Both the position numbers and the translations under genes were made by a program. Positions 44,348 to 56,181 of a stretch of DNA of 64,000 bases are shown piece after piece. Below the pieces are notes generated by a model. It worked only from the letters and a program-made list of their open reading frames with translations, did not search any database and had not been told where the DNA came from. Source of the stretch: Fimbriimonadaceae bacterium (lineage in GTDB: Bacteria; Armatimonadota; UBA10988); assembly GCA_020850355.1 (NCBI GenBank), contig JADZEX010000040.1, positions 6,339 through 70,338 on the forward strand, in the 5' to 3' direction. The first letter of the stretch is position 1, and each line of letters starts with the position of its first letter.

Positions 44348-45085
44348 ATGATCGTCATCCGGGACGTCACCGTCCGCTACCATCGCGGGCCGGAGGCGTT
44401 GGCGAGGGCGAACCTCCAGATCCGCCGCGGCGAGTTCGTGTTCCTGGTCGGCACCTCCGGCTCGGGCAAGAGCACGCTGCTGAAGCTGCTCTACCGCGAT
44501 CTGCTGCCGACCGAGGGCCGGGTCTGGGTCAACGACCAGGACCTCACCACGCTGTCCCGGCGGGAGATTCCCCTGCTGCGGCGCCAGCTCGGGGTGGTCT
44601 TTCAGGATTACCGCCTGCTGCCCTACAAGACCGCCAGCGAGAACGTCGCCTTCGCCCTCGAGGTGATCGGCGACGAGCCGCGACAGATGCACCGCAAGGT
44701 GATGCGGGCACTGGCGCGGGTCGGGCTGCAGCAGCGTCAGGGCGCCATGCCGCACGAGCTGTCGGGCGGCGAGCAGCAGCGCATCAGCATCGCGCGGGCG
44801 CTGGTCAACGATCCGGTGCTGCTGCTGGCCGACGAGCCGACGGGCAACCTCGACCCCGACTCCAGCCTGGGTGTGATGCAGCTCCTCGACGAGATCGCGG
44901 CGAGCGGCACGACCGTGGTGGTGGCGACGCACGACCGCCACATGGTCGACCACTTCCGCAAACGGGTCGTGGAACTGGTCGACGGCCGGATTGTCAGGGA
45001 CGAGGAACTGGCCGGCTACGCCCGTCCGAGCGAGCCGGCGGTGGCCGCGGCGCCGGTGGAGGGAGTCGACCTTGCGGAGGCTTGA
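44348..45085 (+). CDS. ftsE: Cell-division ABC transporter ATP-binding protein FtsE
   Basis: MIVIRDVTVRY...LVGTSGSGKSTLLKLL (Walker A), LSGGEQQRISIARAL (ABC signature) and LLLADEPTGNLD (Walker B). Confidence 0.9.
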   Translation: MIVIRDVTVRYHRGPEALARANLQIRRGEFVFLVGTSGSGKSTLLKLLYRDLLPTEGRVWVNDQDLTTLSRREIPLLRRQLGVVFQDYRLLPYKTASENVAFALEVIGDEPRQMHRKVMRALARVGLQQRQGAMPHELSGGEQQRISIARALVNDPVLLLADEPTGNLDPDSSLGVMQLLDEIAASGTTVVVATHDRHMVDHFRKRVVELVDGRIVRDEELAGYARPSEPAVAAAPVEGVDLAEA

Positions 45086-45956
45086 GTTTCAGATCAGCGA
45101 GGTCTTCACCAACATCCGCCGCAACGGCATCCTGTCGCTGGCGGCGGTGCTGACGGTGCTCGCCTCGCTGGCCATCCTCAGCCTGTTCTTCCTGATGCAG
45201 CGCAACCTGCAGGGCCTCCTGGAAGAGCAGACCCGCAAGGCGCAGATCTCGGCGTTCCTGAAGCCGGGGCTGAGCGAGGCCGAGCAGCAGGCCCTGCGGG
45301 AGCAGATCACCGCCATCGCTGGGGTGGCGCAGGTCGAGTACGTGTCGCCCCAGGCGGCCCTGGCGCGGACGATCGAGTCGATGGATCTTTCGGCTGCGGA
45401 ACGCAAGCTGCTGGGCCCGGAGAACCGCCTGCCGGCCAAGTTTGCGGTGCATCCAGCCGATCCGGCCGGCATCGAAAGCGTCGCGGAGCAACTGCAGAAG
45501 CTCGCCGGTGTCCAAGATGTGCGGTATGGCGAGAAGGTTGTAGCGCCCCTCAACGAGTTGCAGCGTCGCTTCCGGCAATGGGGCTGGGGCGCGCTGGTGG
45601 TGCTTTCGCTGGCGACTTGTGGTATCATCAGCAACGCGATTCGGCTGACGATCTATGCCCGGCGCCGCGAGATCCGCATCATGCAGCTCGTTGGTGCGAC
45701 GGACGGGTTCATCCGGATGCCCTTCTTGCTGGAGGGTTTGGTGCATGGCATTGTTGGCGGGCTGCTCGCCTTGCTGACGACGTCCGTGCTCTACGCTCAG
45801 GTGCGTGAGGCCAGTGCGGTGATCATTCCGTGGCTGAAGCTCATCTCTTTGGAGGAGTTGATGCCGTCGTTCGGAATCGGTCTGGTAGCGCTGGGTATGC
45901 TGTTCGGGTTCGGCAGTTCGTTGGTGTCGATCCGGCAGTTCCTGCGCGAGGCCTGA
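45072..45956 (+). CDS. ftsX: Cell-division permease FtsX
   Basis: The TTG start at 45072 has GGAGGGAG upstream and overlaps the ftsE 3' end by 14 nt. It has an FtsX-like topology: a first TM, a large periplasmic loop, then three C-terminal TMs (ISNAIRLTIYARRREIRIMQLVGATDGFIRMPFLLEG). Confidence 0.85.
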   Translation: MRRLEFQISEVFTNIRRNGILSLAAVLTVLASLAILSLFFLMQRNLQGLLEEQTRKAQISAFLKPGLSEAEQQALREQITAIAGVAQVEYVSPQAALARTIESMDLSAAERKLLGPENRLPAKFAVHPADPAGIESVAEQLQKLAGVQDVRYGEKVVAPLNELQRRFRQWGWGALVVLSLATCGIISNAIRLTIYARRREIRIMQLVGATDGFIRMPFLLEGLVHGIVGGLLALLTTSVLYAQVREASAVIIPWLKLISLEELMPSFGIGLVALGMLFGFGSSLVSIRQFLREA

Positions 45957-45982
45957 GCCTGGTGCAAAGGAGAGCCGAAGGA

Positions 45983-47155
45983 ATGAGATTCCGGCCAAGC
46001 CGTTTGACCGGGCCCATGCTCCTTCTCGTCGTGGTCGTTCTGGGGCTGCCCCCCGTGTCGGCGAAACCCGCCGCCAGTAGCGTCAAATCCCTGAAGGCCA
46101 AGCGCGCTGCCACGGTGCAGAAGCGCGAGGTGATCGAGCAGCAGGTCCGCGCGGCGCGCTCCAAGCAGCGGGTCGCCTCGGCCAGCTTCCACGAGTCCGC
46201 CCGGACTCTCGCCGACGCCGAGTCCGATTTGAGTTCGGCGCGCTCCAAGCTACGCTGGACCGAGAACCGCATCCACGGCTGCCAGGAGCGCCTGGACGCC
46301 ATTAAGAAGAACCTCGAGGTCCAGACCAGCGCGCTCTGGAAGCGGCTTGAGCTGTTCTACAAGCAGGGCAGCATCGGCTATGTCGAGGTCCTCCTGGGCG
46401 CTCAGGATTACGATCAGTTTGTCGACCGCGCGGTCTTTGTGCGCGGCATCGCCGCCGAGGATCTGCGGCTGAAGCAGCACATCGAGGAGAGCCAGCAGCA
46501 GCAGGCGGCGCTGAAGGCCGAGTTGCAGCAACGCTGGATCGAGTCCAACAGCCTCCGCAAGCAGTGCGCCTCGAAAGCCGAGACCGTGCGGGTCGAAGCG
46601 GCGCGGAAGTACGACTACCTGGCCACCGTGAAGCGCGACCGCGCCGCCAAGGAAGCCGCGTACGAGGAGATCGTCGAGACGCAGCGCGAGATCGACGCCG
46701 TGCTCTGGCGGATCAACCGCCGGGCGGCGAGCGCCTCGAGTGGCGGCAGCGGCGGGCCGGTGCGGCGCCTCAGTGGCGGCTTCATCTTGCCCTGCAACGG
46801 GCGCTTCAGCAGCCGTTTCGGCTGGCGAACTCACCCGATTCTGGGCACCCGCCGCTTCCACGACGGCCAGGACATCGCCGCCCCGCACGGCACCACGATC
46901 CGCGCCGCGGCGGGTGGCACGGTGGTTCACGCCGGCTGGATGAAGGCCTACGGCAACACCGTGATGGTCAGCCACGGCGGCGGCTACACCACCCTCTACG
47001 GGCACTGCTCCTCGCTGCTGGTGAGGGATGGCCAGGCGGTCTCGCAAGGTCAGCCGATCGCCCGCGTCGGCAGTACGGGCTGGTCGACCGGCCCGCACCT
47101 GCACTGGAGCGTCTACCACAACGGCTCGGCGGTCAACCCGCTCAGCGTGCGGTAG
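45983..47155 (+). CDS. Coiled-coil M23-family metallopeptidase (EnvC-like partner of FtsEX, with intact catalytic residues)
   Basis: AAGGAG lies 6 nt upstream. After a signal sequence there is about 250 aa of coiled coil, then the M23 domain with HDGQD...HLHWSV (the HxxxD and HxH zinc ligands are present). Confidence 0.85.
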   Translation: MRFRPSRLTGPMLLLVVVVLGLPPVSAKPAASSVKSLKAKRAATVQKREVIEQQVRAARSKQRVASASFHESARTLADAESDLSSARSKLRWTENRIHGCQERLDAIKKNLEVQTSALWKRLELFYKQGSIGYVEVLLGAQDYDQFVDRAVFVRGIAAEDLRLKQHIEESQQQQAALKAELQQRWIESNSLRKQCASKAETVRVEAARKYDYLATVKRDRAAKEAAYEEIVETQREIDAVLWRINRRAASASSGGSGGPVRRLSGGFILPCNGRFSSRFGWRTHPILGTRRFHDGQDIAAPHGTTIRAAAGGTVVHAGWMKAYGNTVMVSHGGGYTTLYGHCSSLLVRDGQAVSQGQPIARVGSTGWSTGPHLHWSVYHNGSAVNPLSVR

Positions 47156-49112
47156 CGGGCGCCGAGCCGCTCGTCTGCAGGCTGGCCAGCACCTTCTGCC
47201 GCTCCGCCTCGGCTGCTGGCGAGCGCTCGGCCGCCGCTTGCACGGGCACGCCCAGGCGGTCGGACAGCAACATCGCCAGCAGGGCCTCCATGATGTTGCC
47301 GCCCCCCGTCTCGCCGCCGCCGATCATCACCCGCGGCACGACATCGACGCCCGCCGTTTCGATCGCCTGCGCGAAGCGGGTCAGGACCTCTTGCGTCACC
47401 TGGAACTGCGGCCCGCCGTAGGCCCGGACCTGCTCCTCGGTCGCCAGCGCCTGCGCGATCCCGACACGGGCCACCTTCTCGGCCTGGGCCTCGGCCATCG
47501 CGCGAATCTGCGCCGCCTCTTGCAGTGAGCGCTGGTAATCGGCCTTGCCCTGGTTGGTGCGCACGGTGATGTCCAGCTCGGACTCGGTCAGGCGCGTCTG
47601 CATCTGCGCCCGCGCCTCGGCCTCGCGCAGTTCGCGCTCCTTGACCGCCGCCTGCTCCTGCCGGCCGTATGTCTCGATCTGCTCGACCGCCACCTGCCGC
47701 GAGCGGAGCTGCGCCAGGATCACCTCGATCTGAGTGTCGCCCTCGACGGAGGCCGGCGTGCCGATCAGGACCTCTTCCAGCTCCAGATTGTAGTGCGCGA
47801 ACTTGGCGCGCATCTCGTCGCTGGCCTGCTGCTGAATGGCGCTGCGCTCCTGCAGCAGCTCAATCAGGGTGCGCGTCTGCGCGACGTTCTTGAAGTACGC
47901 CGCCACCATCGGGTCGAGGGTCTGTTCGACCAGGCGCTTGATGTCACCGAAGCGCTGCACCACCAGCGGAGCCTTGCGGTAGTCGATATGCACCACCACC
48001 GACAGCGGCAGCCGCGGCTCGAACGCGTCTTTGGTGATCAGCGAGACCTCGGCGAGATTCTCGTCGAACCCGTGGGCGCCGGCCTCGGCGCGGATCCACT
48101 TCAGGATGAAGTTGGTGGTCGGCACGCCGAGCACCTTGCCAGCGTAGGAGTTGAAGGCGTACTTGCCCGGCAGCAGGCCCTCGTCCCAGACACCGCGCCG
48201 GCCCTTCGCCACCAGCTCGCCGTGGCGGTACTCCTGACCGGACAGGTCGGGCCCGCTCTTGCCGGTGTACGAAACCACCACGCCCACCATGCCGACGCCG
48301 ATCACCGTCTTCGGGATCAGCTCAACCGTGGCGAACAGGCGGTTGATGTAGTAGGTGCCTTCCACCAGCACCTGGTACTGCCGCCCGCGGCCGCCACCTG
48401 CTTTCAGGAAGTGATCGGCGTCCTGGAAGTTGTTGTGGTAGGTCTCCGCGTCCAGCGGGTTCTCGCCCACCACCGGCGCGATGATCTCGCCCGACGGCAG
48501 CGACGGCCCGTCGTGGACCGTGACCACGCCGATCAGGTCTTCGCTGTTGCTGATCACGACTGGCTGGAAGCCACCGCGCTCGTTGATGAAGTGGGCCATC
48601 CGCTCGATCACCGCCGACTCGTCGCGGCTCATCGGCAGGCTGAAGACCTTCTCGGCGGTGATCACCACGAACTGCACCAGATTGATGGCGTACGTCCCCT
48701 CGCGCAGAATGCGGCGCTGCGGGCCACGTTGACCGCCGCGCCGCAGGAAGTTGACGACATCCTGGACATCGTGCACGGTCTCGTTGCTGGCCAGCACCTG
48801 CGTCGGCTCCAGCGGCACGCCGTCGCGCGCGAAGACGTAGCCGATCTTGCCCTGCGGAATCGTCACCAGCGGCATGACGTGCACTTTGTACTGCACCGGC
48901 AGCAGGAAGTGCAGCCCGCCGCGCAGCACCTCCGGCTGGTAGCCGGCCTCGCCGTTGAGGGCCAGCAGTCCGCTGCGCACCGAGCCCTTGACCAGGCTCC
49001 AGCGCTTCTCGACGATGCCGATCCGGTTGTTGGGGATGTAGCGAACCCCCAGCAGCAGCACCAGCGCCACCAGACCGACCAGCCCCAGCAAGCTCCACAC
49101 CAGCGGTCCCAT
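47142..49112 (-). CDS. SPFH/band-7 flotillin-like protein (YqiK/FloA-type)
   Basis: MGPLVWSLLGLVGLVALVLLLGVRYIPNNRIGIVEKRW is an N-terminal TM followed by an SPFH domain. A long Ala/Glu/Gln-rich coiled-coil flotillin tail follows. GAGGGAG lies 8 nt upstream of ATG 49112. Confidence 0.85.
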   Translation of the reverse strand: MGPLVWSLLGLVGLVALVLLLGVRYIPNNRIGIVEKRWSLVKGSVRSGLLALNGEAGYQPEVLRGGLHFLLPVQYKVHVMPLVTIPQGKIGYVFARDGVPLEPTQVLASNETVHDVQDVVNFLRRGGQRGPQRRILREGTYAINLVQFVVITAEKVFSLPMSRDESAVIERMAHFINERGGFQPVVISNSEDLIGVVTVHDGPSLPSGEIIAPVVGENPLDAETYHNNFQDADHFLKAGGGRGRQYQVLVEGTYYINRLFATVELIPKTVIGVGMVGVVVSYTGKSGPDLSGQEYRHGELVAKGRRGVWDEGLLPGKYAFNSYAGKVLGVPTTNFILKWIRAEAGAHGFDENLAEVSLITKDAFEPRLPLSVVVHIDYRKAPLVVQRFGDIKRLVEQTLDPMVAAYFKNVAQTRTLIELLQERSAIQQQASDEMRAKFAHYNLELEEVLIGTPASVEGDTQIEVILAQLRSRQVAVEQIETYGRQEQAAVKERELREAEARAQMQTRLTESELDITVRTNQGKADYQRSLQEAAQIRAMAEAQAEKVARVGIAQALATEEQVRAYGGPQFQVTQEVLTRFAQAIETAGVDVVPRVMIGGGETGGGNIMEALLAMLLSDRLGVPVQAAAERSPAAEAERQKVLASLQTSGSAPATAR

Positions 49113-49239
49113 CACGGAACTCCCTCGGCCCCGGTCGCGGCGGCGCACTGCCATCCCGTGAACCGGTGCCGAGAGAGCCAAGCGTCTGGCAGCCGGAGAT
49201 CGTTCCCGACTGGCCACGGGCGGCAGGATTCCCTCGAAA

Positions 49240-49255
49240 TGCGTAGATTTACGCA
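49240..49255. promoter_or_regulatory. Perfect 16-bp palindrome TGCGTAgattTACGCA in the divergent flotillin/LuxR intergenic region (candidate operator)
   Basis: Read directly from the sequence. It lies 96 nt upstream of the LuxR-family gene's ATG. Confidence 0.3.
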
Positions 49256-49350
49256 GCCAAGGTGGACGGGAGTCTGGCACCATGGCCGTTGACGAACCGC
49301 CGGGGGGCGGGCGCCACGGCGCTCGGAGTTCGGGGGCGGAGGAGGGGGCG

Positions 49351-50172
49351 ATGGCCCAGGAGCTGGACCCGCTGGAGCCGCCGCCGGAGAACGGCCAAGG
49401 CTTGCGGGCACCCTTGCTGGACCACGCCCCGCCCTTCGAGGGCGCGGCCCGCCTCCGCCCCTGGCGCGGCGCGCGGGGTTACCGGCTGCCTTTCGTATCC
49501 AACCGCGCAGCACCGCGGGAGTTCGTGGTTACCCTCGGTCACGACCAGCGTAGTCTGTACCTCGCGGTGGCGGGCCCGCTGCAGGCCGAGTCCCACGACA
49601 CGTACCTGGCCGTCACCACCGAGTGTCTGCTGGATCTCGAGAAGCCGGGTTACGAGTTCGACCGCGAGCTGATCATCGGCACGGCCGGGCCGTGCGGCTG
49701 GGACGGGTACAACTACTTCCACCACAAGTTCGAGCACCTCGCCGAGCCGACCGCCCCGATCCGCGCGGCCTGGGGCACCTCGGCCGGGGTGGAGTTCCGG
49801 CTGGCCGTGCCGCTGAACCACACGTATGTGCGGCCCGGCGGCCGCCTGGCGCTGCGGCTGCAGGCCGGTGAGGACGGCCGCGGCTACTTCGGCTGGCCGG
49901 ATTGGCGCGAACACCACCGCTCGCGGGCCAACGTGACCCTGGAGGGCCACTGGTCGGTCGCCCCAGCGGAGCACCCTTTTGGCCTGACCCTGCGCGAGCG
50001 CCAGGTGCTGCAGGCCCTGGCCGACGGCGGCAGCGCCGAAGCGGTCGCCGCTCAGCTCGCCCTCAGTCGGCGCACCGTCGAACGCCACCTCGAGAACATC
50101 CGCCAGAAGATGCGCCGCCCCAGCAGCCTGGCCTGCGTCGTCGAAGCGTTGCGGTATGGCGTGGTGAGCTAG
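49351..50172 (+). CDS. LuxR/GerE-family transcriptional regulator with an uncharacterised N-terminal domain
   Basis: GGAGGAGGGGG lies 6 nt upstream of ATG 49351. The C-terminal LTLRERQVLQALADGGSAEAVAAQLALSRRTVERHLENIRQKM is a LuxR-type HTH. Confidence 0.75.
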   Translation: MAQELDPLEPPPENGQGLRAPLLDHAPPFEGAARLRPWRGARGYRLPFVSNRAAPREFVVTLGHDQRSLYLAVAGPLQAESHDTYLAVTTECLLDLEKPGYEFDRELIIGTAGPCGWDGYNYFHHKFEHLAEPTAPIRAAWGTSAGVEFRLAVPLNHTYVRPGGRLALRLQAGEDGRGYFGWPDWREHHRSRANVTLEGHWSVAPAEHPFGLTLRERQVLQALADGGSAEAVAAQLALSRRTVERHLENIRQKMRRPSSLACVVEALRYGVVS

Positions 50173-51401
50173 GTCGTCGCCTCGGCCGCCACAAACGGCA
50201 GCCGCAGCGGCACGTCGTCGCCGCCTTCGCCGCGCTGGCCGCCGGCGTCGACCCGGTCCGGGCCGACCAGGTAGAGCAACCCCTGCCGCGGCCGGTAGCG
50301 GATCGGCTGGTCGTCGAACGGATCCCGCGGCACGGCTGGCAACAGACCGTCGGCGACCAGCTCGTCGAGCTTCGCCGGCAGGCGGCCGTGGCGGTCGAGG
50401 TAAACGCGAATCGCGTAGGCACAGGCCACCAGCCGCGGCTGCCCGCGGCGGCGGTCGGAGGCGTTCAGGGCCTGCTGGTAGACCGGGGCCAGCGAACCGC
50501 TGAGGTCCCAGGCCCGGTTGGCCCCCGGCAGCGGCCGACGCCGGCCCGGCGGCTGGCCTGCTTCGCGGATCGCCCTGGCCAGCAAGCGATTGCGGTTCTC
50601 CAGCATCCGTGGCAGCGCGACATGTGGCAGCGGCTGTTCGCCGTCTGTCGTGGGATCGTAGTACCCCTCGGCCTGCAGCGCCGCGATCACGCCAGCCGGT
50701 TCGGCGTTGGTGGCGGCGAGCCGACGAGCCGCGGCCTGCAGGTGTTGGCGCTGCGCGGCGCTGAGGCGGGGCAGCGGCCAGCGCCTGGTGGGGTCGGCGG
50801 TCGCCAGGTCCAACGGTGGAGCACCTAGCTCGGTCAGCAGCCCACGTTGCCCGATCGCTTCGACGGCAATCGAGACGAGGTACCCGATCAGGCTGTTGGG
50901 CGCCTTCGCGGTCTCGCTGCCGAGGCGGGTGATGCGCTTGAGGTCGGCCGCGGCCGCCGCCATGTCGCCGCTCTGCCAGCGCACCTTGGCGCGCAGCAGC
51001 AGCATCCGCGCGGCGGCGCGGCTGTCTCGGTAGAACGGTCCGAAGTCGAGCGCCCCGCCGCCGGGCGTGCCCAGCCAGCGGCACTGCGGGCGGTCCAGGG
51101 CCTGCGCCAGGCGGTCCAGCGTACCGGCGTTGGTGGCCACCCAGGCGCGCACCGCGGGGCTGGCCCCGGACAGCCCCCGGGCGCTCAGCGCGGTGGGCAG
51201 CTTCGCCTGGCTGACAATCTGCGGCAGTGCCGCCACGGCGTTCTGGGCGTCGGGCACGGGGCTCCAAGGATTACGCCAGGGCGGCGGCGCGGCGGGGCGC
51301 AGCAGCCACCAAGTCAGACCACCGGCGAGCAGCGCCGCGGCCAACAGACAGCCACCGCAGCAGCGTGGGCCGCGGCCGGTGCGACGGTCAGATGGCGGCA
51401 T
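50169..51401 (-). CDS. Membrane-anchored protein with a GspG-like (pseudopilin-fold) C-terminal domain; paralog 1
   Basis: An N-terminal TM (CLLAAALLAGGLTWWLL) and a helical middle region. The C-terminal AYAIRVYLDRHGRLPAKLDELV...DPFDDQPIRYRPRQGLLYLVGPDRVDAGGQRGEGGDDV parallels the GspG globular domain (ALDMYKLDNGRYPT...DPWGNPYQY...GADG..GG.DAD). It lacks a prepilin leader. Confidence 0.65.
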   Translation of the reverse strand: MPPSDRRTGRGPRCCGGCLLAAALLAGGLTWWLLRPAAPPPWRNPWSPVPDAQNAVAALPQIVSQAKLPTALSARGLSGASPAVRAWVATNAGTLDRLAQALDRPQCRWLGTPGGGALDFGPFYRDSRAAARMLLLRAKVRWQSGDMAAAAADLKRITRLGSETAKAPNSLIGYLVSIAVEAIGQRGLLTELGAPPLDLATADPTRRWPLPRLSAAQRQHLQAAARRLAATNAEPAGVIAALQAEGYYDPTTDGEQPLPHVALPRMLENRNRLLARAIREAGQPPGRRRPLPGANRAWDLSGSLAPVYQQALNASDRRRGQPRLVACAYAIRVYLDRHGRLPAKLDELVADGLLPAVPRDPFDDQPIRYRPRQGLLYLVGPDRVDAGGQRGEGGDDVPLRLPFVAAEATT

Positions 51402-51566
51402 CGCAGGTCTCCCTCGTGGTGGGCTGGGCGGTGAGCAACAGGGCCAGGTCAGCGGCCTCCGCGGTCGGTGGTCGCCGCTCGTCGCGGCCCCGGCGGCCGA
51501 CGGTGGCGAGCGTGCCGTTGGTCGGCCGGTAGCGCAGCATCTCGCCGGACGCCTCGTCGAGGTAGC

Positions 51567-52817
51567 TCACGGCCCGGTCTCCCAGGCCGCGTCCGGCCGT
51601 ACGAAGGTCAGTGGCACCAGCACGTCGTCTCCGCCGCGCACCCCGCCGCGGTAGCCCGAGTGATCGACGATCTGGGTCTTGGCGTCGCGTTTGGCGTTGT
51701 CGCCGAGCCCGACCAGCCGGCCGCTGGTGACGGTCCAGGCCACCGGCTGGCCGGTCGCCGGGTCGATTGGCGGCGCCGGCAGCAGCCTGGCGCGCACCAG
51801 GTCGGTCCAGCCGCTGGGCAGCCGTTGGGCCTGGTCGACGTACAGTCGCAGCGCGATGGCCGCGGCGGTCAACCGGATCCGGGCCACCCGGTCGTCGTAC
51901 CAGCGTGGCAGGTTGGCTCGCCGGCCGAGCAGGCCGTCCCGCTGCAGCCGGGAGTCCTGGCCGAGCCAGCCACTGACCGGGGTGCGTTGCGCCCGCGGCC
52001 GAGTCGCGTTGTGCAGCAGCACGGTCGTCCGCGCCCGCCGTTGCTGGACCAGTCGCTCGCGCCAGGGGAACGCCGGGAGGCGGCTGACGGCGTGATGGTA
52101 GTCGGCCCGCAGGGCGGCCTGCAGCGCGGCCGGCTCTTCATGCCAGGCCAGCAGGTCGCGCAGCTCGGCCTGCCAGAGGCGGCGGTCGGCGGGGCGCAGG
52201 CGTGGCAGCGGCCAAGGCCCGGAGCGGGCCGGGCGGGCCGGGCGCCAACCGGGCGCCGGCCGCAGCAGGAGGTGGTAGGTGCACAGCGCCGCCTCCTCGC
52301 CCAGCGTCGCGGCGGCATGGTCGCCCAGCGTCCGGGCGCCGCGGGCCGCTCGGGCGAGCAGGCGGCGGGCGGCCCGGGCGTCGGCCAGCGCGGCGTCCAG
52401 GTCGCCCTGTTCCCAAGCCCGCAGCGCGCGGCACTGCCAGAGTCGGGTGACCGCCGCCAGCCGCGACCCGGTTTGCTCGTTGGCGCGATCGTCCAACGTC
52501 CAGGCGCACTCGGGCCGGGCCGCGGCAGCGCCGAGCAGCAGGAAGGCGGACCGGTGGGTGGCCAGCCAGGCGACGGCGTCGGCGGTCAGTTCGCCTTGCT
52601 CGATGGTCAGGCGCCAGTGGTTCTCGGGCAGGCAGTCGGCCAGCGCCGCCAGGGCGTTGTCGTAGTGCGCCGGTGGCGCTGCCGGTGGGGGAATCGTCTC
52701 AGCGACGGCGGCCGGGCGCGACCAGCGCCAGAGCAGCCCCAGGCCGAGCAACCCGAGCAGCGCCAGCCCGCCGCCGCAGCCCACCAGGCACCCCAGCCAG
52801 CGACCGCGCATCGGCAC
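51567..52817 (-). CDS. Membrane-anchored protein with a GspG-like C-terminal domain; paralog 2
   Basis: It is clearly alignable to 50169..51401 (WPLPRL block, and AIALRLYVDQAQRLPSGWTDLV...DPATGQPVAWTV...GLGDN...GGVRGGDDVLVPLTFV), with an N-terminal TM. Confidence 0.65.
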   Translation of the reverse strand: MPMRGRWLGCLVGCGGGLALLGLLGLGLLWRWSRPAAVAETIPPPAAPPAHYDNALAALADCLPENHWRLTIEQGELTADAVAWLATHRSAFLLLGAAAARPECAWTLDDRANEQTGSRLAAVTRLWQCRALRAWEQGDLDAALADARAARRLLARAARGARTLGDHAAATLGEEAALCTYHLLLRPAPGWRPARPARSGPWPLPRLRPADRRLWQAELRDLLAWHEEPAALQAALRADYHHAVSRLPAFPWRERLVQQRRARTTVLLHNATRPRAQRTPVSGWLGQDSRLQRDGLLGRRANLPRWYDDRVARIRLTAAAIALRLYVDQAQRLPSGWTDLVRARLLPAPPIDPATGQPVAWTVTSGRLVGLGDNAKRDAKTQIVDHSGYRGGVRGGDDVLVPLTFVRPDAAWETGP

Positions 52818-52889
52818 CTCCTGGAGTCCGGAAGCGTTGCCCCCGGACGGATGGTTCCAGCCCGGCGGAGTCGATTCCTGGTGACGCGC

Positions 52890-54848
52890 TTACCAAATGT
52901 AGTCGCGCGCCGCGGCGCGTTTGTCGTGGCCGGAGAGCACATGGAAGACGCGCAACTTCTGCAGTGTGACCGGCGAGAACCCGCCCAACGGCAGATAGAG
53001 GATCTGCCGTCCCAGCCGACCGGCCCATTGTCGCAGCAGCGGCCGCGGCGGCTTGGCGGCGACGTAGACGACATGCCGCTGTTCGCTGTAGTCGAGCGCC
53101 GCCAGCAGCAGCACCTCGCTCTTGCGGAGCACGCCACGGTACGCCCGGTCCTCCCAGACCTCGTGCATCCGGCCCGGCGGGTAGCTCATCATGAAGCCGC
53201 CGTACTCGCACCGGGCGATGCCCGGACCGATGATCCGGCCGTCGGCGGCGGTCGCATAGAAGGCCATGTCGGACTCCTGGCTGTGCTCGCCCAGCCAGGT
53301 CATCCGCCAGGGGTAACGGCGGTCGGCCTCGTCCTCGTCGAAGATCACCACGACGCTGCCGACCTCACCCCGCGTGCGCCGCAGCTCACGCACGAAGAGC
53401 TGCCGCTGATGCCAGTTGCGGACGGTCTCGCGGACGTCGATGCCGTCCAGCAACGAGGTCCGGAATGGCTCGACACGGGCGTCGTCCTCAGCCAGTTGGT
53501 GCTTCGCACGCTTCTTGAGGTGTTCGCCAAACCCCTCGATCACGATGTCCTCGGGCGGGTAGGAGCAGATCCCGCCGCCGCGCAGGAACTCGCGCCGCCA
53601 CTCGCCGGGCCGCCGTTCATGGCGCCGCTCCTTCAACCGCACCCCCCGCAGCCGGGCCTTGTCGCGCGGCGGGCGCGGCCGGAACTGGATCCGGCGACTG
53701 CTCTGCCAGACTTCCTCCGGGTTGAGCCGGATGGTCGTCAACTCGGCGGACTCCTGCTGCCACGGCCAGTGCGAGCCGAGGTCCCAGGTCTCGAAAGCCA
53801 GGTTGTCGTCGGCGATCCCACGAGCGCCGATCACCAGTTGGTGCAGGTCGGGCAACAGCAGGCCGTCGAGCAGCGCCCAGTTGCGGCAGAAGCGGCGCCA
53901 GATCCCCAGATCGCTGGTGCGCAGTTGCTCGCCGGTGTGCTCCTCATACTGTCGCCGCGCCGCCTGCATCAAGCCCAGCAGCACCTTCTGGCGGTCCAGC
54001 GGCGAGAGATGGTCGGCGGCTGGCGCGGCGCGCCAGGCGAGGTCGATCTGCAGCCGAGCGCGCTCGTACTCCTGGTGGCCAAGGTTGTCGCGCCCACCGC
54101 TGACCAGCCGCAGCCCCGACTGGTGCTGCCGCGCCGCGACCGGCAACGGCGGCAGCCGCGGCGGCAGTTCGTGGCGCCGCCGCTCGTAGACCGCGGCAAC
54201 GAAGGGCGGCGTGGCCAGCAGGCCGCGGACGCTGTCGGGATGCAGGTTGAAGACCTGCACCCCGGCCCGCTGCTGCCGCGCCAGCGGCTGCACCAGCGGG
54301 CGGGCCAGGCCTTGCAGGATCCCGGCGACGTGCTGGAAGCCGCAGACGCAGAGCACCCGTGGCTGGTCGGCGAGCTGCTGCAGGTGCCAGGCGAGGTTTG
54401 TTTCACGTGAAACATCGGCCGGGTCGACGGCCCGCGCGCGGCGGGCGGCGTAGGCTTCCCAGAGCTGCCCCCAGCCGAGGCGGGTGAGCACGTAGCTGTC
54501 GGGGAAGGGGTCGTCGTAGAGCGGGTAGCTGTCCAGGTCGAGGTCGCCGAAGATCACCGGCAGACCGCGCTCCTGGCCGCTGCGCACGGCTTCGAGCAGC
54601 GCCTCGCAGGGCTCCAGTGGCAGGTAGACGGGCTGCCCCTGGCGGTCGAGATAGGCCACCACGCTGAGTTGCGGCAGGCGCGCGACGGCGCGCCGGATGG
54701 CCGGCTCGAGGGTCGCCGGCAGCTCCACCACCAACGCCGTCGGCTGCCACTGGGCAATCACCCGCCGCACGGCGTCGGCAAACTCCAGCCGGTAATGCAG
54801 CACCGGGGCAAACAGCACATTGCCCGCCCGCGGCAGGCCTGCGAACAT
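52890..54848 (-). CDS. Large TraB/GumN/Tiki-superfamily domain protein (DUF5682-like, 652 aa)
   Basis: MFAGLPRAGNVLFAPVLHYRLEFADAVRRVIAQWQPTALVVELP resembles TraB motif 1 (GTxH...PDxVxVEL), and LCVCGFQHVAGILQGL resembles motif 2 (GxxHxxGI). GGAGGTG lies 4 nt upstream of ATG 54848. The ORF-track extension to 54992 is rejected. Confidence 0.7.
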   Translation of the reverse strand: MFAGLPRAGNVLFAPVLHYRLEFADAVRRVIAQWQPTALVVELPATLEPAIRRAVARLPQLSVVAYLDRQGQPVYLPLEPCEALLEAVRSGQERGLPVIFGDLDLDSYPLYDDPFPDSYVLTRLGWGQLWEAYAARRARAVDPADVSRETNLAWHLQQLADQPRVLCVCGFQHVAGILQGLARPLVQPLARQQRAGVQVFNLHPDSVRGLLATPPFVAAVYERRRHELPPRLPPLPVAARQHQSGLRLVSGGRDNLGHQEYERARLQIDLAWRAAPAADHLSPLDRQKVLLGLMQAARRQYEEHTGEQLRTSDLGIWRRFCRNWALLDGLLLPDLHQLVIGARGIADDNLAFETWDLGSHWPWQQESAELTTIRLNPEEVWQSSRRIQFRPRPPRDKARLRGVRLKERRHERRPGEWRREFLRGGGICSYPPEDIVIEGFGEHLKKRAKHQLAEDDARVEPFRTSLLDGIDVRETVRNWHQRQLFVRELRRTRGEVGSVVVIFDEDEADRRYPWRMTWLGEHSQESDMAFYATAADGRIIGPGIARCEYGGFMMSYPPGRMHEVWEDRAYRGVLRKSEVLLLAALDYSEQRHVVYVAAKPPRPLLRQWAGRLGRQILYLPLGGFSPVTLQKLRVFHVLSGHDKRAAARDYIW

Positions 54849-55018: not shown

Positions 55019-55111
55019 TTGAGCAGTGACAAGAAGAAGCATCGGCGGAAAGTGCGCAACCACCTCATGAAGAAGCGCCGCCGCCGCAATCGCCACAAAG
55101 TCCGGCGGTAG
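55019..55111 (+). CDS. Unannotated 30-aa highly basic ORF, possibly a bS22-type small ribosomal protein
   Basis: TTG at 55019 with GAGGA 8 nt upstream. It encodes SSDKKKHRRKVRNHLMKKRRRRNRHKVRR. It is followed by an imperfect hairpin (55121-55153) and a T-run. It is below the 60-aa cut-off of the ORF track. Confidence 0.35.
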   Translation: MSSDKKKHRRKVRNHLMKKRRRRNRHKVRR

Positions 55112-55182: not shown

Positions 55183-56130
55183 TCACGCTGCCGTCAGGCT
55201 CCCCACCGCCCGCGGGTGCGCCTGACGGTAGACTGCTTCCAGGTGCGCCGTCTCGACGTGGGTGTAGATCTGCGTCGTTCCGACGTCGGCGTGGCCGAGC
55301 AGCTCCTGGATGATCCGCAGGTCCGCTCCACCCGCCAGCAGGTGCGTCGCGAAGCTATGGCGGAGCGTGTGCGGGCCGATCGGCGGCCGCCGCTGCCCCA
55401 ACCCGGCCCGCTCGGCGACGCGGCGGACAATCTTGTAGAAGGCGACCCGCGTGAGGCCTTGGCCGCGGCCTGAGATGAACACCGTGTCGCCGGTCTCGCG
55501 CTTCTGCCACAGCTCGCGGACCTCGCGCAGGTAGAGCGCGCAGGCGTCGGCGGCCAGCCGTCCGAACGGCACGATCCGCTCGCGCTGACCCTTGCCGGTA
55601 ACCCGCACCAGGCGCTGCCGCAGGTCCAGGTCGGCCTGCCGCAGGCCAATCAGCTCGCTGACCCGCAGGCCCGCGCCGTAGGCCATTTCCAACATCGCCA
55701 CATCGCGCAGGGCGCGCTGCTGCTCGGCTTCCTCCTGCCCGGCCGCCGGTTGCGCCGCGGCCAGCAGGCTGCTGACTTCGTCGGCCGACAGCACCGGCGG
55801 CAGGTAGCGCCCGCTGCGCGGCACCGGGATCCGCTCGCTGAGATCGGCCGGGATCAGCTCCTCGGTTTCCAGGAACCGAAAGAACCGGCGCAGCGCCGTC
55901 GCCTTGCGCGAGACGCTGCGGGTCTTCAGGCCGCGGCTCCAGAGGTGGTTCAGGTAGAGGTCGATGGTCGCCAGGTCGACCCGGGCGGGGTCTTCGATCT
56001 GCGCCGACGCCAGGAACGCGCTGAACTGCGCGAGGTCCGAACCGTAGGCCTCGAGGGTGTTGCGGCTGAGACCACGCTCGACGGTGAGCTGGTCCAGAAA
56101 CTCCGCCACGGCTGCCGAGAGGGCGCTCAT
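55183..56130 (-). CDS. Tyrosine recombinase of the XerC/XerD family
   Basis: N-terminal core-binding domain (EFLDQLTVERGLSRNTLEAYGSDL). The catalytic R...HxLRHSFATHLL...GHADVGTTQIYTHV with Tyr is present. The listed ORF start is a GTG at 56145; the ATG at 56130 is used. Confidence 0.85.
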   Translation of the reverse strand: MSALSAAVAEFLDQLTVERGLSRNTLEAYGSDLAQFSAFLASAQIEDPARVDLATIDLYLNHLWSRGLKTRSVSRKATALRRFFRFLETEELIPADLSERIPVPRSGRYLPPVLSADEVSSLLAAAQPAAGQEEAEQQRALRDVAMLEMAYGAGLRVSELIGLRQADLDLRQRLVRVTGKGQRERIVPFGRLAADACALYLREVRELWQKRETGDTVFISGRGQGLTRVAFYKIVRRVAERAGLGQRRPPIGPHTLRHSFATHLLAGGADLRIIQELLGHADVGTTQIYTHVETAHLEAVYRQAHPRAVGSLTAA

Positions 56131-56181
56131 ACCCGCTTGCGACACCCGTCGCCGACCCAGGTTGCGGCGAGTCCGGCAGGG

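Follow-up and report, generated by a model that had tools for sequence, protein, structure and literature searches.

The window analysed here, a 64-kb stretch of a metagenome-assembled genome from a member of the Fimbriimonadaceae (Armatimonadota), has a G+C content of about 72% and carries three genes on its minus strand that are referred to hereafter as A, B and C. Gene A encodes a large protein with an N-terminal domain of the TIKI/TraB type, and B and C encode paralogous membrane-anchored proteins (the B/C family) whose C-terminal domains resemble GspG, the major pseudopilin of type II secretion systems (T2SS). The initial annotation of this DNA had treated the three genes as one operon and a possible module. 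The genes and the parts of their products that matter for the argument are as follows.

52890..54848, minus strand: gene A, an open reading frame (ORF) of 652 aa with 100% identity to the NCBI entry 'hypothetical protein IT204_13065, Fimbriimonadaceae bacterium'
54174..54848, minus strand: candidate TIKI/TraB-fold domain of A (about aa 1-225), with invariant H18, E22, E42, R148/E149 and H173
51567..52817, minus strand: gene B, an ORF of 416 aa (the protein is probably 414 aa), membrane-anchored, with a helical body and a C-terminal GspG-like domain
52731..52787, minus strand: hydrophobic anchor of B (aa 11-29), Kyte-Doolittle maximum 2.1, covered by a helix at residues 6-32 in the AlphaFold2 (AF2) model
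51588..51911, minus strand: GspG-like domain of B (about aa 303-410), a helix at 303-330 followed by short strands, linked to GspG chains by the C-terminal family profile
50169..51401, minus strand: gene C, an ORF of 410 aa, a paralog of B with identical architecture
51300..51356, minus strand: hydrophobic anchor of C (aa 16-34), preceded by four Arg residues
50187..50474, minus strand: GspG-like domain of C (about aa 310-405), recognized from alignment with B and from the C-terminal family profile

Each of the three genes is preceded by a Shine-Dalgarno-like GGAGG or GGGAG. For B, the ATG at 52811, 6 bases into the ORF, is the likelier start, being better placed behind AGGAGG, and it yields the 414-aa protein of the NCBI record P0121. 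The intergenic gaps are 72 nt between A and B and 165 nt between B and C, a spacing that is moderate rather than tight. The three minus-strand ORFs stand as initially described, as do the other statements of the initial annotation at the level of sequence. No terminator-like hairpin was predicted between A, B and C on the minus (coding) strand, and co-transcription in this organism is possible.

Outside this genome, A was not found together with B or C. In 80 species genomes carrying an A homolog, none had a B/C-family gene within 6 kb of it (0/80), and none was present in the six distinct contexts of the closest A orthologs, which belong to other Armatimonadota and are 61-67% identical to A (0/6). 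The genes found downstream of these orthologs encode a glycoside hydrolase, a beta-helix protein, MazEF, a 5'-nucleotidase and a small membrane protein, and the products of genes downstream of close A orthologs in three loci (385 aa and 699 aa in L003, 278 aa in L001, 409 aa in L005) had no similarity to B or C. The same picture emerged from the B/C side. Neither an A-family gene nor a gene for the MoxR ATPase that accompanies A homologs (see below) was present in 80 metagenome loci that carry the B/C family, and no A homolog was seen near the four closest relatives of B and C (L009, L010, L012 and L013; 0/4). The initial annotation had proposed a novel envelope or secretion-associated module, or a TraB-like signaling module, and had itself named absence of co-localization in related genomes as the outcome that would speak against it; since the three genes are never co-localized there, the proposal is not upheld. 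The reading that we favor, with a probability of roughly 0.75, is that A and B/C are two unrelated and uncharacterized families that have become chance neighbors in this genome only. The A-B-C adjacency would then be a local gene order within one lineage.

Protein A belongs to a large and broadly distributed family. A word-index search returned 774 homologs, of which those of Geobacter and its relatives are about 48% identical to A along the whole length. Relatives are also carried by at least 593 species genomes, in Desulfobacterota, Acidobacteriota, Nitrospirota and Acidimicrobiia. Scans of A with Pfam and NCBIfam gave nothing at an E-value (E) of 1 or below except a meaningless arylsulfatase match (E 0.13), and neither phmmer nor a 32-sequence profile found a match to A among PDB sequences. 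No transmembrane segment was detected in A (Kyte-Doolittle 19-residue maximum 1.26), which is predicted to be a soluble, cytoplasmic multidomain protein.

The N-terminus of A carries, as initially noted, the histidine motifs of the TraB/PrgY/GumN/Tiki proteins. The TraB-type motifs are PVLH18YRLE22, VVE42LP, SR148E149 and CGFQH173, and H18, E22, E42, R148, E149 and H173 are invariant in 32 homologs that share 45-67% identity. The TIKI superfamily has been defined by a parallel beta-sheet core, a 2His/2Glu motif and a conserved basic residue, and it includes ChaN, HopBA1 and the erythromycin-esterase (Ere) family (PMC6254334). The N-terminal domain of A has an alpha/beta fold of this kind, with a parallel beta-sheet core and flanking helices, and contains 2His/2Glu catalytic-type residues together with a conserved basic residue, which motif order would place at the structural catalytic positions. 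The Pfam TraB model (PF01963) matched neither A at E of 1 or below nor any of the 32 homologs at E of 0.01 or below. Fold and motifs, rather than the Pfam TraB model, thus support assignment of the A N-terminus to the TIKI/TraB/ChaN/erythromycin-esterase fold. Because this fold is accompanied by retained His, Glu and Arg residues of active-site type, A is a putative hydrolase, most likely a peptidase or esterase.

Among the closest known systems is the TIKI/TraB/PrgY/GumN/ChaN/erythromycin-esterase superfamily, of which the Tetrahymena TraB family protein 8bqs_DQ, ChaN (2g5g), HopBA1 (5t09) and EreC (6xcq) are examples. Unlike these, A has about 430 additional residues, with a helical domain resembling an AAA lid and a C-terminal region of high conservation. 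The strongest motifs of the family (CSYPPED, QESDMAFY and GPGIxRCEYGG) lie in the C-terminal third of the protein, but the structural model of this part is of low confidence. The A family is also set apart by its predicted location and its partner, since it is cytoplasmic and paired with MoxR, whereas the pheromone-shutdown proteins TraB and PrgY are membrane proteins and Tiki is secreted.

The genomic partner of the A family is an ATPase. In 63 of the 80 species-genome loci (56 by an automatic criterion and 7 with overlapping stop-to-stop ORFs), the A homolog had a gene for an AAA_5 MoxR-like protein directly upstream on its own strand; in 69 of the 80 such a gene lay within 6 kb. An ATPase of this type, of about 272-278 aa, immediately precedes the A homolog in Geobacter metallireducens, in a Vulcanimicrobiota genome and in Armatimonadota UBA10988. 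In the window, however, the gene upstream of A encodes a XerC/D-type recombinase, and tblastn found neither a MoxR relative nor a remnant of one within the 64 kb. In two close Armatimonadota loci, an opposite-strand pair encoding a PQQ-repeat protein and a DUF4405 protein has been inserted between the MoxR gene and the A ortholog (L176, 8001-10629; L178, 7089-9690), so that the A-MoxR pairing is being eroded within the Armatimonadota. In both loci the A ortholog is followed by a mazEF toxin-antitoxin pair.

A parallel arrangement is seen in Escherichia coli, where YehM, a DUF5682 protein (330.8 bits, model positions 1-695), adjoins the AAA_5 protein YehL. Sixteen of 32 A homologs touched the Pfam DUF5682 model (PF18934), but at model positions 1-81 only and with 23-32 bits; the model has 727 positions and a gathering score of 26 bits, and most of these matches fall below it. 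Window protein A itself did not match PF18934, and a full-length match above the gathering score was not obtained. When the A profile was aligned to the N-terminal 200 or so residues of YehM, hhalign returned E 8.4e-5 and a probability of 60% over about 170 columns. These comparisons suggest that the A family is distantly related to DUF5682/YehM through its N-terminal domain. Like YehM, the A family lies directly downstream of an AAA_5 MoxR-type ATPase, although window A does not, and unlike E. coli yehLMPQ the sampled A contexts lack the VWA and SWIM partners YehP and YehQ. Across bacteria, the A family most likely works with a small AAA+ ATPase of the MoxR type whose gene lies directly upstream, in the manner of yehL-yehM.

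B and C are 30% identical over 385 aa (E 6e-22). Both contain the block WPLPRL, and they share a C-terminal block, LP..L..LV...LLPA.P.DP...QP...G.L...G....VD..G.RG..GGDDV. Each has one hydrophobic segment, at the N-terminus, and none later in the chain (Kyte-Doolittle 19-residue maxima 2.1 for B and 1.69 for C). Prepilin leaders were not found: neither N-terminus, MPMRGRWLGCLVGC in one case and MPPSDRRTGRGPRCCGGC in the other, contains a G/F-T-L-x-E motif or Glu5, and the GspG-like part begins only near aa 300, so the proteins do not carry a class III (prepilin) signal, which would consist of a short basic leader, G/(F,M)-T-L-x-E and, at the mature N-terminus, a hydrophobic alpha-1N helix. The initial annotation had called B and C leaderless paralogs with one transmembrane anchor each and with these blocks in common, and on all of these points it is borne out. 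A lipoprotein reading of B, suggested by LVGC at aa 11-14, was rejected because the strongly hydrophobic stretch comes after the Cys and not before it, and because Cys residues are not conserved among family members.

B was modelled with confidence by AF2 (predicted local distance difference test, 86.1), with a membrane helix at residues 6-32, a body that is helical throughout, a long helix at 303-330 and short strands at the C-terminus. Members of the family have in common an N-terminal signal-anchor, followed by about 260 aa of all-helical body and then the GspG-like domain. The Arg-rich tail of C favors an orientation with the N-terminus inside the cell, and hence the conserved body of B and C is probably extracytoplasmic.

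No Pfam or NCBIfam model matched B or C at E of 1 or below. This includes T2SSG (PF08334), so that none of the three Pfam families named in the initial annotation, PF01963, PF18934 and PF08334, directly matches a protein of the window. The resemblance of the paralog C-termini to the globular domain of GspG nevertheless stood up to profile comparison. A C-terminal profile of about 112 positions, built from 33 sequences including B and C, was searched against PDB sequences, and the top eight matches were all GspG pseudopilins, among them XcpT 2kep (E 6.5e-6), 5wda (3.7e-5), PulG 1t92 (1.1e-3) and 3g20 (1.2e-3). The alignment to 5wda extends over the lower part of the pilin alpha-1 helix. With a whole-length B/C profile GspG was reached at E 0.07-0.16 only, and the matches became significant upon trimming to the C-terminus. 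Pfam T2SSG matched 9 of 45 B/C-family members, one of them above the gathering score (P0144, 30.8 bits against a cutoff of 21, model positions 7-98 of 108).

The consensus ending of the B/C family is ALR.Y...HG.LP..L..LV..G.L..VP.DPF.G.PLRY.P....LYS.G.D..DDGG....D, and the pattern that it has in common with GspG can be written Y..(D/E)(N/H)G.(Y/L)P..L..LV......P.DP(W/F).G.P..Y.....LYS.G.DG.D.GG....D. As judged by these sequence comparisons, homology of the C-terminal 100 or so residues of B and C to the GspG globular domain is supported. The family differs from GspG in other respects. It lacks the prepilin leader, Glu5 and the polymerising N-terminal helix, its GspG-like domain comes after another kind of membrane anchor and about 260 aa of helical body, and its genes are unlinked to T2SS or type IV pilus genes and often occur in tandem arrays.

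The B/C family is very large. An exhaustive HMMER search with a B+C profile recovered 5179 cluster representatives at E of 1e-3 or below and 195 at E of 1e-10 or below; most members are 400-560 aa long and many align over their whole length. A word-index homolog search with B found B alone, and a homolog search with the profile of a divergent alignment (A3) found 5 proteins only; the search for related loci was made with a closer set (A4). An N-terminal hydrophobic segment is present in 113 of 142 family members, and some of the N-termini are signal-peptide-like and end in AxA. Where relatives have names in their source records, these read 'hypothetical protein', from Armatimonadota and Planctomycetota. 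The family has no Pfam or NCBIfam model of its own, and no literature on it was found in the library searched.

Tandem duplication is typical of the B/C family. Among the nearest relatives, confirmed by the family hidden Markov model, the genes are single in L009 and L012, a tandem of three in L010 and a tandem of two in L013. The 80 metagenome loci (G+C 0.32-0.72) contain 99 family genes, and 2-6 tandem copies were present in 20 of the 70 loci with a called family gene. The largest array consists of six consecutive same-strand genes (L153, metagenome contig SDBU01002936.1). No Pfam family occurred in more than 3 of the 71 genes that flank the B/C family, and T2SS, type IV pilus or other secretion families were absent from the 25 most frequent families listed for these genes; likewise, no T2SS or type IV filament genes were seen near B and C in the window. 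In L009 (2939-6199, minus strand) and L012 (4533-7736, minus strand), proteins of about 1070-1086 aa with 59% mutual identity and no Pfam domain are encoded divergently upstream of the single B/C-family gene; the window has no counterpart of these.

Several observations weigh against the reading of A and B/C as chance neighbors. The three genes lie on the same strand with short gaps and no predicted terminator, and may form one transcript. The exact A-B-C arrangement is available from one genome. The search for MoxR covered the 64-kb window, and a partner of A may sit elsewhere in the genome. Literature searches on DUF5682, YehM/YehL and T2SSG/PF08334 returned no functional study of the A or the B/C family. 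Finally, a whole-chain Foldseek search of the PDB with the B model, a query dominated by the helical body, gave no hit with E below 0.79 and no pseudopilin in the top 50, so that the relationship to GspG rests on sequence profiles. One alternative that would make use of the gene arrangement (one strand, gaps of 72 and 165 nt, no terminator-like sites) is an operon particular to this lineage, with the TIKI/TraB-fold protein A processing or regulating B and C, for example by trimming their cytoplasmic N-terminal tails in place of the prepilin peptidase step. TIKI-fold enzymes do include N-terminal-trimming and site-specific peptidases (PMC6254334), and B and C both have short, Arg-rich cytoplasmic tails. 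However, these tails are not conserved across the family, the adjacency is absent elsewhere (0/80, 0/6 and 0/80 loci), A is missing near the close B/C orthologs in L009, L010, L012 and L013, the partner of the A family is the MoxR ATPase, and, whereas A is a soluble protein, prediction puts the conserved parts of B and C outside the membrane. We regard such an operon as quite improbable, and the predicted topology and lack of conservation likewise make it unlikely that A acts as an enzyme on B or C as substrate.

Other alternatives concern B and C themselves. They could be envelope proteins tied not to A but to a nearby FtsEX-M23 peptidoglycan-hydrolase module, since L010 (1988-8960) has three B/C-family genes in tandem immediately upstream of ftsE-ftsX-M23-ykuD, all on one strand, and the ftsE, ftsX and coiled-coil M23 peptidase genes of the window (44348-47152, plus strand), about 3 kb from C, are orthologous to those of L010 with 52-69% identity. 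This link is unlikely. It is seen in two genomes only and in differing orientations, SPFH and LuxR genes intervene in the window, neither FtsEX nor M23 is enriched in L009, L012, L013 or the 80 metagenome loci, and residual synteny among related Armatimonadota is the simplest account. A further proposal, to which we give very little weight, is that the B/C family is a widespread class of non-polymerising, membrane-anchored pseudopilin-domain proteins that dock, cap or template pseudopili or type IV filaments, or that use the GspG calcium loop for envelope binding, TIKI-fold A possibly having been recruited as a processor in this lineage. It is harder still to credit that B and C, with an unusual leader, polymerise as working pseudopilins in a type II secretion or type IV filament machine. 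The C-terminal homology to GspG includes part of the alpha-1 helix and Pfam T2SSG matches some family members, but there is no G/F-T-L-x-E leader and no Glu5, the helical body of about 300 aa between anchor and GspG-like domain is incompatible with the packing of pilin N-terminal helices, and the 71 flanking genes are without T2SS or type IV pilus families among the 25 most frequent listed.

The remaining neighbors of the three genes include two further features.

49282..50172, plus strand: LuxR/GerE-type regulator, convergent with the three genes and overlapping the end of C by 4 nt; a neighbor with no demonstrated functional tie
55183-56145, minus strand: XerC/D-type recombinase, upstream of A

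The convergent orientation of the LuxR gene and its 4-nt overlap with C agree with what was first described, and the GerE helix-turn-helix is found at aa 235-283 of its product (E 3e-13); the N-terminal 230 residues matched nothing in Pfam or NCBIfam. A gene for a 713-aa SPFH/Band 7 protein (47142-49283, minus strand), with the domain in the middle only (aa 378-514), sits between the M23 peptidase gene and the LuxR gene, and its start overlaps the start region of the latter. Between the XerC/D-type gene and A there is an extremely basic 30-aa ORF (55019-55111, plus strand; MSSDKKKHRRKVRNHLMKKRRRRNRHKVRR) with a TTG start and AGGA upstream. It has no Pfam match and resembles small basic ribosomal-type proteins such as bS22.

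If A and B/C are chance neighbors, the region holds two independent gene sets. B and C would be the products of a tandem duplication in a very large family whose members are exported or anchored in the membrane, and their C-terminal domain would have descended from GspG with loss of the prepilin leader and of the polymerising hydrophobic N-terminus. With both of these lost, B and C could not be processed or assembled like pilins, and their most likely role would be that of envelope-side scaffold or binding proteins.

A conserved A-B-C module, if true, would have been a new envelope or secretion system, and the evidence shows otherwise. What the locus offers is no surprising discovery but two families worth following up in annotation. 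In the B/C family, a GspG pseudopilin domain has lost its tie to the pilin leader and has been joined to a membrane-anchored body of helices; this is a clear case in which a domain of the type IV filament superfamily was co-opted, and the family should be given a definition of its own. The A family, with its TIKI/TraB fold and its MoxR ATPase partner, is widely distributed, the pair being present in Geobacter, Acidobacteriota, Armatimonadota and others, and is an uncharacterized counterpart of yehL-yehM; linking the two pairs leads to the hypothesis of an AAA+-assisted hydrolase.

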